Shown one piece after another: positions 4,410 to 15,204 of a stretch of DNA of 64,000 nucleotides. The stretch is taken from the NCBI GenBank assembly GCA_964016885.1, contig OZ024740.1, forward strand, positions 207,266,001 to 207,330,000, read 5' to 3'. The notes beneath the pieces were generated by a model that made no database searches, was not told the DNA's origin, and saw only the letters and a list, made by a program, of their open reading frames with translations. Within the stretch, counting starts at the first letter, position 1; each line of letters begins with the position of its first letter. Origin of the DNA: Eledone cirrhosa (taxonomy: Eukaryota). The position numbers and the translations under genes are program-made.

Positions 4410-4480
4410 AGGATAGAAAAGAGATAGATAGGTAAATAGAGAGATAGACAGGTAGATAGACAGGTAAATAGAGAGATATA
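4410..4480. repeat. (GATA/GACA/GGTA)n microsatellite
   Basis: Direct reading. Confidence 0.9.
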
Positions 4481-4840
4481 TTTCTATTTATTGCCACTAG
4501 GGCGCAAAAGAAGGGGACAAATACAAGGGGGGAGTTTACACAAAAAGGCGAGTAAAGAAAACAAATAACAAATATATAATTAACAATAAAGTCCTCAATA
4601 GGGAGGAAGCGTTTTGGGGGGTCACACACACCCCCGAAAAAGTGTGCAACCCTTCTCCTCAGGAGCACAGAGAGAGGGTGCTCCCTCGTTCCTTCATCTT
4701 TTCCATCTACAGGCTGATGTAGAGAGAAGGCCCATTCACACGGGCCATTCTCACCACTTTCACCCACCTTTCATAAAAATGACTGGGGTGGAGCACCTCT
4801 CTCTCCATCCTGATCCTTATTCCGAAATGATATTGGAAGA
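4481..4840 (-). mobile_element. Tx1/L1-clade LINE copy C, 5'-truncated (last ~45 codons of ORF2 plus 3'UTR)
   Basis: FQYHFGIRIRMEREVLHPSHFYERWVKVVRMARVNGPSLYISL is homologous to the C-termini of copies A and B. Confidence 0.92.
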
Positions 4841-4940
4841 TAGACAGAGAGATAGACAGGTAGATAGACAGAGAGATAGACAGATAGATAGACAGAGAGA
4901 TAGACAGAGAGATAGACAGGTAGATAGACATGTAGATATA
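4841..4940. repeat. (GATA/GACA)n microsatellite between Tx1 copies C and A
   Basis: Direct reading. Confidence 0.95.
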
Positions 4941-5156
4941 TTTCTTTATTTACCATAAAGGTATAAAAAGAAGGGACAAATACAAAGGGGGAGTTTACAT
5001 AAAACCGAGTAAAAAGGGTATAAAATGGAAATAATCAAAAACAACCTCAAAAGGGAGGGGACGTGATGGGGGTTGCACACACCCCCGAAAAAGTGTGCAA
5101 TCCTTTGCCCAGGGGAGCACATGGAGAAGGTGCTCCCCTCTCCTTCACTTCTTTAC

Positions 5157-10750: not shown

Positions 10751-11049
10751 AGCTAGATTGATAGACATGTAGATAGACAGATAGATAGACAGGGAGATAG
10801 ACATGTAGATAGAGGGAGATAGACAGCTAGATAGACATGTAGATAGACAGATAGATAGACAGATAGATAGACATGTAGATAGACAGATAGATAGAGAGAG
10901 AGATAGACATGTAGATAGACAGATAGATAGACATGTAGATAGACAGATAGATAGACAGAGATAGACAGGTAGATAGACAGGTAGATAGAGAGATAGATAG
11001 ACAGGTAAATAGACAGGTAGATAGACAGCTAAATATACAGGTAGATAAA
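10751..11049. repeat. (GATA/GACA)n microsatellite between Tx1 copies A and B
   Basis: Direct reading. Confidence 0.95.
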
Positions 11050-14000
11050 TTTCTTTATTAGCCACAAGGGCACAAGAGAAGGGGACAAATACAAATAAGG
11101 AGTTTACATACAGGTATATGAAAATAAAACTATTAATAAAATAACAAATAACAATTGAAATCCCCAATAGGGGGGGGGGGGAGGTGTTACACAGGGGTTG
11201 TACACACCCCGAAAAAATGTACAACCCTCATCTCCAGGAGCACCAAGAGTGAGTACTCCCTTCCTCTTTTTCCTCAACCTACAGGCTTATATAGAGAGAA
11301 GGCCCAACCACTCGGGCCATCTTTGCCACATTCACCCACCTTTTATCAAATTTGCTGGGGTACAGCACCTCTCTCTCCATCCTGATTCTTCTTCCAAAAT
11401 GATATTTGAAAAAACGAATCAGTTGCTCGCCGGAGAGAAAGGTGTCTGACCTAAGCCCTTTTAACCTCGTCCACCATATAACCTCTTTCAACATAGCCAT
11501 AACACATAGGAAAACCGCCTCTCCCTCGTTTTTGAAGGGGGGTGGCGGTTTGATCATGACAATGGACTCGGTGCTCAACCGGATTGGTCCCACCCACGAC
11601 AATAGTCGGTCTACATAGCCCCACAGGTCAGTAACGCCCGGGCAGTGTACAAATGCGTGCGCGACGGTTTCCTCGTCGCGCACGCATCTTGGACAGATCT
11701 TTTTCGAAGGGTCCCTGCCCGGGCGCCCGTGTCTCGAACAGGTAGAGCTCCTCGGTAACACTGCCAGGCCAGGGACTTTTAGAAGTTGTACATTGGTACC
11801 GGGCGGAAGGTCCTACCGAACAGACTGGCCAGTTCGTCCTCCTCTATGCCTAGAGTTTCTCCGAGCGCGTCGTCGCACTTGGCTGCGGACCAACCATCAA
11901 TAGAATGTCGAAGTGGAGTCTCCACTGATCGCCGGGTCCGTTTGCCAGAGGACTGTGAGCGGTTGAGCACATTCGATGTGCCAGTCGCCTATTTTCCTCG
12001 GTCTTTGCTTGACCCAGGACTGCAGCTCAAGGCTCGCCTCACGAACGGGGCCCACACCGGTTGTCCGGTGAGGTATACGTGGGGGTGTCGCAGCCTGAGC
12101 GCGTGTTTGTGCAGATGACGGACGCTATAAAAGTGTTCGCCACCTCCGCTCAACCTTTCAAGGATAGTTTGCACTCGGCCCACTTCTGGATGAGCGCAAA
12201 CACCTTGGCCGTCACCTCATTCCAGTTCTTCTCCACCTGGAGGTCCGGACCAAACCAGACCCAGAGCAGCTTTACTGGCCCTTCCATCGGAAGGCATCGG
12301 TTTGCCTCTCCATGTTCCGAGTTGCAAACCGACGGATTTGTCCCGGTTTAGCTTCACTCCTGTGAACCTTTCGTATTCCTCCAGTAAGGTGCCAACCTCC
12401 CCGAATTGCGAGGTGCTCGACACCATTACTGTCACGTCGTCAGCGTAGGCCGACGCCACTTTTCGCAGTCCCGGTTCCAAAGGGAAGCCCTGCAATAGCT
12501 CCAACTTCCGCAGTAGTGGCTCGAGAGTCAATACGTACAGAAGGGAGGAGAGAGGGCATCCCTGTCGGATGAATCACGTGATATGGAACGGCTCCAAGAG
12601 GTAGCCATTCACCTTCACCGTTGAGCAGATGTTGCTGCTGTGCATTGCAGCAATCCAGCCCCTGAACACGGGTCCGAAGCCTTCCGCCTCAAGCACTGCA
12701 TCCAGGTAACAATGGTCAACCCTATCAAAAGCCTTAGGCTGATCCAAGTTGATCAGGGCCCCACCGAAGCCGGGTTTACACCCAACCCTCTCTATGATGT
12801 ATCGCATGAGGTGGAGGTTGTCGTGTATGGATCTGGTCGGGATTGCGCATGTCTGCGCTTCTTCTACCAGGTTTTCGACGACAAGCGCCGGCCTCTTTGC
12901 CAACACCTTGGCCAAAATCTGTAACTCTGTGTTGAGCAGAGTTATGGGCCGGAAGTTGCCTATGTCATCCCCCTTATTCTCGTCCTTCCTGACTAACGTG
13001 ACTACGCCCCTGGTCACAGAACTGGGAATTCTCCCGTTCTGCTGCCAGTTGCAGTAGACCGCTTCCAGGAGACTGAAGAACAAGTCCGGCATTGCTACGT
13101 AAAATTCGTAGGGTAGACCGTCGAGACCTGGAGATTTGCGTTTGCCGCATTGGCTCAGCGCGTCCCCTATCTCAGTGGCCAAAATCGGCCTTTCGCAGAA
13201 CTTCGCCTCGCCGTCCGAGAGTCGCGATAGGCCGTCGAGGTATGGACCGAAATCCATAGCCCCTCCCGGCGCATCGCCCTGCCCGAAGAGTTGAGCAAAG
13301 TGCTGCTGAAAGGCCGCGCACATCTGTTTCGGCTCACGTATCACGCGTCCGTTTTGGTCCTTCAAAGACCGAATCGTGGACTTGTTGCCACTTTTCGCCT
13401 CCAACTAACAGCTTTGGCTCCCTAATTTCCCAGAGCATGTATTTTGCTTCTGACAACGCAGCCTTCATGCTTTGCGTCAAAGAACTGGTCCAAGGCCGTT
13501 CTCGTCGCTAGCACGCTGGCTACGTAGCCACTCCTAAGTGCCTTTTCTACTTTATCTACCAGTTCCTTTTCGGTCTTATTTCTATCTAACACTAATTCTT
13601 TACTAAAACCTTTTGAGTCTAATCTAACTGCCCCCTTGAGAGAGTACCACCATCTGTTGTTGACAATGGTCCCCGTCAAGTGCTGCTTAACTAAAGTGCT
13701 AATCCGTCTACTGTAGGCTTTGCATGTCGGTAACGACATGTTCAGCTTCCAGTAGCCGGGTCCCTGTCTATGGGTTTTGGCAAGGTTGACTAAGCAGGTC
13801 ACTAATTTGTGATCTGAATAGGCCACCATGAACATTTGTGGACAGCTTAACATGTCCCTATCCTTCTTTCTAACTAGAACCCTATCTAGGTACGATCTAG
13901 ATGGTCCACTGTGATTAGTCCACGTCCACAGTGGCACAGTCGGAAAATCTAGTCGAAATCTATCGGCCAGGTCAAATCGGCCGATTAACTGTTTCAGGGT

Positions 14001-14903
14001 GTTACACCCCCCTCTATCGCGACATGCTCCCACATAGTCCCAACGTGCATCTAGGATTCCATTCCAGTCCCCCACTAACAGCAGGGAGCGGGAACTTCCC
14101 AGAAAAGTCTCTAGACGTTTGAAGAAGTCTGGCCGCGGTGTCCCGGATGGGGATATGCGGCCACCAGCCTGAAGGCTCCACCTTCACTACCGTTAACGTC
14201 TAGGACCACCAGTCGACCCTCCGGGTCCATATGTACCGTCTGTGTTACGAGGTCCAGGTGTTTCCGCAGCAAAATGGCAACCCCACCCCCACCTCCTGGC
14301 TGACAGAGAGATGCGTAGACCTCAAAGTCATCGAAGATGGGGGCCAGTTGTCGCTCGCTGTGGATCCTGGACTCGCAAATGGCTACTACATCCATACTGT
14401 GCGACCTGAGGTCGTTTAAGAGTTTGCCCTGTTTCCAGGGCATCCCCAGGCCGCGTACATTCACACATCCAACTCTTATATTGGCCATGTTGGTGCTGAA
14501 AAGTTAAAAGAAGAGGAAAAGAAATCACTCACCTCTTTGTCTCCTGGGGACCAGGCTGCACAATTTTCATGGGGGTGTTGGAGGGGTTGTTTGGTGGGGT
14601 GGTGGTCTCTGGCGGGGTGGGGACGGAGATGTTTGGTGGGGAGGGGGTGTCAGGTGGGGTGGAGAAACATTTCAAAAGGATGCGGTTATAGGGTTTGACG
14701 CAAGGGTTACTTACGTCGTTAGGAAATTTTTCTTTTAACTGTTTATGTGTGTCCATGGAGATCCTAATCACTTTAAGATTAGGATTCTCCGAAGAGTGTG
14801 TAAAAGTTTTCCCTTCGGTCTCCACCGAAGGGTTTTTATATATGGTGTCTGTTAAAGTTTTGTTGTTAGTATTTATGTAGGTGTAACATTTTTGTTGTGT
14901 TGA
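11050..14903 (-). mobile_element. Tx1/L1-clade LINE copy B, 5'-truncated within ORF1, with internal deletions and frameshifts
   Basis: ORF1 end at 14529-14825. ORF2 pieces at 14111-14488 (VNVRGL), 13422-14075 (GDWN, SYLDR, YSDH), 12574-13404, 12217-12531 (AYADD) and 11279-11761 (CPRC..HAFVHC). Confidence 0.95.
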
Positions 14904-15204
14904 GGTAGATAGACAGGTAGATAGACAGGTAGATATATAGATAGATAGACAGGTAGATAGACAGGTAGATATATAGATAGAGAGAGAGATAGACAGGTAG
15001 ATATATAGATAGACAGGTAGATAGAGAGAGAGAGATAGACAGGTAGATAGACAGGTAGATAGAGAGAGAGATAGATAGGTAGATAGAGAGAGAGATAGAC
15101 AGGTAGATAGAGAGAGAGATAGACAGGTAGATAGACAGGTAGATAGAGAGAGAGATAGACAGGTAGACAGGTAGATGTATAGATATAGAGATATAGACAG
15201 CTAG
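14904..15204. repeat. (GATA/GACA/GAGA)n microsatellite
   Basis: Direct reading. Confidence 0.95.

Follow-up and report, generated by a model that had tools for sequence, protein, structure and literature searches.

Three related Tx1-like LINE families with a leaky preference for TATC repeats, stacked in one GATA-core tract

Introduction

The presence of three long interspersed nuclear elements (LINEs) in head-to-tail order within one GATA-rich tract raises the question of whether such elements choose the repeat as a target, or whether the arrangement has arisen in another way. The three copies, here called A, B and C, lie on contig OZ024740.1 of assembly GCA_964016885.1 in a stretch of 64,000 nucleotides (positions 207,266,001 to 207,330,000), which is referred to as the window. 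A preliminary description of the locus had proposed a single family of Tx1-clade elements that specifically targets (TATC)n/(TGTC)n in one orientation. Copies of these elements were therefore compared across the 3.0 Gb genome. The target preference is real and well supported, and its mechanism is not new. The preferred site is C^TAT(C/A)T, where ^ marks the nick; the preference is leaky and is weakest in family C.

Three families in one repeat tract

A GATA-rich repeat bounds and separates the three minus-strand copies, which carry an apurinic/apyrimidinic endonuclease-like (APE) domain and a reverse transcriptase (RT), and the places given for them by the preliminary description were correct. 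Copy C (4479..4840) is a 5′-truncated member of family C, consisting of the end of open reading frame 2 (ORF2) and the 3′ untranslated region (UTR), and is 94% identical to full-length family-C copies. Copy A (4939..10759) is a full-length member of family A of about 5.82 kb. Copy B (11048..14903) belongs to family B and is 5′-truncated inside ORF1. The repeat, listed without strand, was found as a GATA-core segment at the 3′ flank of C (4413..4478) and as three segments of a 12-bp minisatellite, located between C and A (4841..4938), between A and B (10760..11047) and at the 5′ flank of B (14904..15200). Tandem Repeats Finder assigns period 12 to the tract between the copies, which is thus a degenerate minisatellite of 12-bp units built around GATA and not the pure tetranucleotide tract first supposed.

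The copies of the window are 72-75% (A/B), 80% (A/C) and 75% (B/C) identical in blastn, and the ORF2 of full-length representatives of the three families share 75-81% identity. The 3′ end of each copy has at least 39 genomic matches with 94-99% identity. Since identity is 72-80% among the three copies and 93-99% to copies elsewhere, A, B and C are members of three distinct multi-copy families, not of one, and they do not result from a local duplication. This is in agreement with the earlier view of diverged copies and independent insertions, and the three related families have likely inserted independently, in the same orientation, in one GATA-core tract.

An exact target-site duplication (TSD) of 16 bp surrounds copy A, at 4923-4938 on the 3′ side and at 10760-10775 on the 5′ side. 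This 16-mer occurs five further times within 10760..11047. For copy C there is a candidate TSD of 14 bp with two mismatches, a duplication that lies within the repeat and is therefore uninformative, and for copy B one of 20 bp with three mismatches.

All three copies had been described as truncated at different points, which holds for B and C. The 5′ end of copy A was used to retrieve 30 loci, all of which start at the same base as the copy itself, and nine additional upstream bases are common to most of these loci. Copy A is therefore full-length, with its 5′ end near 10759, and it shares 93-97% identity with 22 further full-length copies.

Elsewhere in the window no nucleotide match to families A, B or C was found beyond the stack, as previously noted for Tx1 pieces in the TA/CA/GA tracts. 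For the cysteine-rich C-terminal region of ORF2 there is one weak tblastn match (33%, E 1.8e-6), at 32377-32565, which is likely a fragment of another LINE.

Target sequence at the 3′ junctions

For each query, the junction sample took the 40 matches that scored best among 831-4,170 candidates, so that close copies are favoured and old copies under-sampled. It comprised 39 copies of family A (of 40 non-self) and 39 each of families B and C (all non-self), together with 14 of 20 family-B copies picked by an internal segment, the other six having been retrieved without their 3′ end. Removal of three segmental duplicates reduced these 131 copies to 128.

The 3′ ends of the copies are marked by AAAGAAA followed by two family-typical bases (TA or TC in A, TT or TG in B, TA or TC in C). 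This dinucleotide, written NN below, likely belongs to the element, which places the 3′ ends in the window at 4479, 4939 and 11048. The junctions quoted in the preliminary description, which lacked a poly(A) tail, were recovered, and no run of eight or more A was found at the 3′ junction in any of the 128 sampled copies.

Among the sampled 3′ flanks, 119/128 begin with NN-TAT and 103/128 with NN-TATC. Two or more TATC are present in the 40 nt of 3′ flank in 97/128 copies, and GATA in that orientation in none (0/128). Single copies begin with NN-TGTC and with NN-TCTCT (1/128 each). In family C, 23/37 copies have a TATC-type flank. The 193 distinct 3′ ends of all fetched loci have TATC within the first 8 nt in 167 cases, a set biased towards TATC because neighbouring families were found only beside queried copies; seven clusters of at least four members among the 3′ ends share their flank type.

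The genome-wide end count covered the 3′ end of family A, by exact matches to its terminal 14-mer. This 14-mer occurs 2,010 times, against 99 for the reversed control, an excess over chance of about 1,900 family-A ends. It is followed by NN-TATC in 1,552 cases and by NN-TATA in 200, and NN-TGTC was found in 0/2,010 genome-wide. The proposed orientation towards TATC was thus supported, whereas (TGTC)n as a target was not: GACA/TGTC is tolerated but not targeted, and this tolerance is limited to the side upstream of the nick (2/20 TSDs).

Background composition was estimated from 200 kb taken at arbitrary places of the genome. There, TATATATA occurs 8,060 times and TATCTATC 83 times (97x), whereas the two start 8 and 70 of the 128 flanks, respectively. 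TA tracts outnumber TATC tracts by 372 to 17 (22x), yet the flanks are mostly TATC, and TATC is therefore strongly chosen over the commonest repeat. For comparison, a preference was accepted in PMC4494074 when the target is present in >20% of flanks; the corresponding values here are 77% for family A genome-wide and 103/128 in the sample. The specific targeting proposed earlier is therefore better described as a strong preference than as a strict one, given the 10% of TATA and the lower counts of family C (23/37 at 3′ ends and 9/30 at 5′ junctions).

Repeats upstream of the copies and target-site duplications

The 5′ boundaries were set by reference chaining. Six of the 128 copies have a 5′ junction that is still in element sequence, which leaves 122 resolved copies. 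As grounds for rejecting the targeting, the preliminary description had named 5′-truncation junctions that mostly lack GATA repeat, and random orientation. On both grounds the proposal held. At 45/88 resolved truncation junctions (45/94 with unresolved ones included) the preceding 40 nt contain at least three TATC, compared with 25/9,960 background windows, and the reverse orientation, GATA, was found in 0/88. The TATC-rich junctions are distributed as 7/13 in family A, 29/45 in family B and 9/30 in family C. Of the 67 truncated copies without the end of an earlier copy within 100 nt, 29 are still TATC-rich on their 5′ side, against 0.25% in the background.

A script detected TSDs in unique sequence in 22/122 copies, compared with 22/1,500 mismatched pairs. 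Two of the 22 were discarded as repeat-phase artefacts. The 20 kept TSDs are 13-22 bp long and start with TATC (14), TATA (4) or TAC (2); the base before the nick is C in 16/20, and in the pre-insertion profile the TATC period reaches 16 nt upstream of the nick. At targets other than TATC (L107, L117, L119, L162, L188), the duplication begins directly after the last two bases of the element, without added TATC. These TSDs in unique sequence, together with the absence of added TATC, show that the repeat predates the insertion and that no TATC tail was added.

Stacking is not restricted to the window. The 3′ end of a previous copy on the same strand lies within 300 nt upstream in 33/122 copies, and on the opposite strand in 0/122. 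In a looser two-sided test for family sequence nearby, the counts were 53/128 for the same strand and 4/128 for the opposite strand.

Proposed mechanism and alternative explanations

Judging from the sequences, target choice is probably led by the endonuclease, with an APE domain that would preferentially cut the GATA strand at TATC^TATCT. Target-primed reverse transcription (TPRT) is the established model for insertions of this kind. According to this model, the first nick on the GATA strand would free a 3′-OH ending in AGATA, which would prime reverse transcription at the 3′ end of the RNA, and the second strand would be cleaved 13-22 bp downstream. Every insertion would leave TATC on both sides, and the site would remain a target for sister families; head-to-tail stacks would build up as a consequence. 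Target choice in the Tx1 clade is reported to be set mainly by the endonuclease (PMC4494074, seen in part).

Several observations weigh against an endonuclease-led choice. Nearly half of the truncation junctions (43/88) stay below the threshold of three TATC, with family C the weaker (9/30), and TATC precedes the nick in just 9/20 informative TSDs, a set biased to repeat edges. Insertions also leak into TATA (10% of family-A ends) and into unique sites, and for copies B and C of the window the TSDs are imperfect and lie inside the repeat. The TA/TC dinucleotide, which clusters on the tree in family C, does not follow the star-like tree in family A, where it is not simply inherited. Grafting of the Tx1L loop in the L1 endonuclease (L1-EN) led to no transfer of sequence specificity in the part of PMC1950540 available; conservation of the loop among our families is therefore weak evidence. 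Pairing between RNA and primer may add part of the preference, and both may act. In its full form, the pairing explanation holds that an endonuclease with only a loose specificity for TA-rich sequence nicks the DNA and that TATC is preferred mainly through pairing of (UAUC)n read-through RNA with the nicked GATA primer. It agrees with the lack of poly(A) at the 3′ junctions, with the TATA following family-A ends and with the tree-independent variation of the first two bases past the end in family A; source copies precede TATC, and their read-through RNA would end in UAUC. Nonetheless, we consider it unlikely as the main cause of the preference, since it does not account for the precise phase of the TSD start at +3 (NN-TAT in 119/128), for a TATC period that extends upstream beyond the reach of primer pairing, for the C directly before the nick or for the lack of extra TATC copied at non-repeat targets.

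The remaining explanations have very little probability, to a similar degree. If the TATC run were a 3′ tail encoded by the element, and the 5′ repeats the tails of earlier copies, TATC would be expected after nearly all 3′ ends, as is found, and the 33/122 copies just behind an earlier copy would be readily understood. This possibility is largely refuted by the TATC-rich 5′ flanks of truncated copies that have no earlier copy within 100 nt, by unique-sequence TSDs that start directly at +3, and by copies in non-TATC targets that carry no tail. Random insertion followed by survival in harmless repeat-rich regions, or tandem duplication or an assembly artefact, could be favoured by a genome very rich in simple repeats and by the three segmental duplicates met in the sample. 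However, retention can fix neither the orientation (0/128 GATA-oriented) nor the phase, nor can it account for TATC being chosen in place of TA, and the copies of the window resemble copies elsewhere more than one another; the orientation and identity data therefore refute it. The endonuclease-led choice, possibly aided by pairing, remains the preferred explanation.

Coding capacity of the elements

Copies A and B possess the Pfam domains Exo_endo_phos, RVT_1 and zf-RVT. The ORF2 of copy A (5157..8586, minus strand) encodes the APE endonuclease, the RT and a C-terminal zf-RVT, with the RT motif YADD at 6528-6539 and one frame break near 6890. Its endonuclease domain (7800..8586, minus strand) is uninterrupted. 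The catalytic motifs of the endonuclease align to L1-EN and are conserved in A, B and C. The hairpin-loop region in A reads WTNHSGQSRSYLD, and the other two families resemble it there; searched on its own against the PDB, this region had no useful match. The ORF1 region of copy A (8590..10540, minus strand) comprises several broken frames and one CCHC zinc knuckle at about 9510-9551, and a CCHC knuckle is likewise present in B. In copy B, ORF2 begins at 14488; its frame is broken at several points, and part of it is deleted near 12113.

An ORF2 with APE, RT and cysteine-rich parts behind an upstream ORF1 is a feature of APE-type retrotransposons without long terminal repeats (non-LTR) of the L1 group. 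The 5′ truncation, fixed 3′ end and TSDs are also present, as for other APE-type non-LTR retrotransposons. Folding of the 3′ UTRs gave z values of -2.1, -1.7 and -0.3, from which no conclusion was drawn.

Placement and relatives

Families A, B and C likely belong to the Tx1 clade, as suggested by protein comparisons. Among named proteins, those of Argonauta hians are the closest (62-63%), in line with a host that is likely an octopod. The ORF2 gave bit scores of 421 and 377 against two U2-inserted metagenome ORF2s, 177 against human L1 ORF2p and at most 68 against R2; the best PDB match is L1 ORF2p. In a quick RT tree of 55 rows, the three families form one clade with Argonauta (support 100). 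This lineage falls within a group of 49 rows, supported by a Shimodaira-Hasegawa-like approximate likelihood ratio test (SH-aLRT) value of 95, together with U2- and U1-flanked elements; the U2-flanked ones are not its sister. The sister clade consists of ORF2 proteins at about 40% identity (P0001, P0002, P0020-P0034). The outgroup comprised six rows, including plant and oomycete proteins, and the tree held no labelled vertebrate L1 or Tx1 references. No protein labelled Kibi, Koshi, Keno, Dewa or Tx1L was present among the matches of the homologue, representative and cluster searches, and the ESM Atlas returned generic RT/APE clusters only. A metagenome scan detected no close relative with informative ends, the best whole-ORF2 matches being at about 30%.

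Some Tx1-like metagenome elements are followed by small nuclear RNA (snRNA) sequence, U2 at L281:5815-5977 and L279:4675-4885, and U1 at L283:9079-9233. A U1-flanked APE LINE, seen at the single locus L283, is absent from the snRNA-targeting elements in the available part of PMC4640811. In Patella caerulea, eleven Tx1-like ORF2 proteins (SNE40_003393-003415, cluster P0107) are almost identical and carry locus tags close to one another, which suggests that an element has inserted into a tandem array of genes.

Comparison with known targeting elements

Described targets of the Tx1 clade are (TC)n, (TTC)n, (TTCC)n/(TTTC)n, U2 and transposons (PMC4494074, in the part available, also for the following comparison). 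Microsatellites are targeted by Kibi (TC)n, Koshi (TTC)n and crocodilian families (TTCC)n/(TTTC)n. Similar to these, families A, B and C are APE-type Tx1-like LINEs that favour insertion into microsatellites. Unlike them, they target (TATC)n and leak to (TA)n, neither being a pure pyrimidine run, and their host is likely a cephalopod; the targets of Kibi and Koshi are not theirs. (TG)n is targeted by Togen, an element with a restriction-like endonuclease (RLE; available part of PMC4640811).

The Keno-type elements L279 and L281, identified by their U2 flank, share the ORF2 layout of A, B and C, and their 3′ flank begins with GTATCT. By flank comparison they end in an A-run and lie within U2 genes, whereas A, B and C show neither; the inspected 3′ flanks of the latter are TATC/TATA repeat or unique DNA, without the U2 continuation of L279 and L281.

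In Octopus vulgaris, L1-Tx1 elements are abundant and recently active, with 13 families and 421 recent insertions according to the available parts of PMC13282606 and PMC8967140. Families A, B and C likely fall in this octopus repeat class. The main text of both papers mentions neither GATA nor TATC, the words "target" and "preference" do not occur in the available text of PMC13282606, and that of PMC3747384 names no TATC/GATA target. The target had been put forward as unreported. No description of TATC/GATA targeting was found in the literature searched, which lay outside Repbase, and an earlier mention is possible; tetranucleotide targeting as such is known in Tx1 from (TTCC)n/(TTTC)n (PMC4494074, available part).

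Other repeats

A remnant of a Tc1/mariner-like transposase (weak HTH_Tnp_Tc3_2 match) is located just left of the stack at 2956-3752 on the minus strand. The window also harbours a G-rich minisatellite with a 43/78-bp unit spanning 3.5 kb (25381-28909), a minisatellite with a 71-bp unit in 21.6 copies at 97% (57586-59121) and a 90-98 bp minisatellite (61602-62282). The latter contains GATAGATA per unit and no insertion; a short GATA alone is insufficient for use.

Another dispersed repeat begins with a GC-rich 15-mer directly after TATC/TA runs, at about 2514 in the window and at L235:6642 and 7586, L187, L200 and L252. One family-B copy sits at the start of this repeat. A tandem array with a unit of about 4,981 bp, at least 14 units and >99% identity was found at G000:C1:49301884-49375442 (L309, L310); this array matches the terminal 14-mer and is unrelated to the LINEs.

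Biological meaning

The families are young and high-copy, and family-like sequence accounts for 6,773 of 200,000 random bases. Three of the 17 random TATC tracts lie directly after a family 3′ end. It is a tempting, though rather unlikely, idea that at least seven LINE families, having radiated in octopods, generate their own insertion sites, with endonuclease preference and RNA-primer pairing together duplicating and re-seeding (GATA)n with each insertion, so that a sizeable share of the GATA microsatellites of the genome would be products of the lineage. As part of the same conjecture, the TATCT-reading endonuclease may share its specificity ancestry with the U2-targeting Keno (flank GTATCT).

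The results add (TATC)n to the short list of targets of Tx1-like LINEs and extend microsatellite targeting to what is likely a cephalopod. The series of strictness, tighter in A and B and looser in C, offers a natural set for the gain of specificity by an APE endonuclease. GATA microsatellite markers of octopuses are predicted to lie often at the ends of LINEs.

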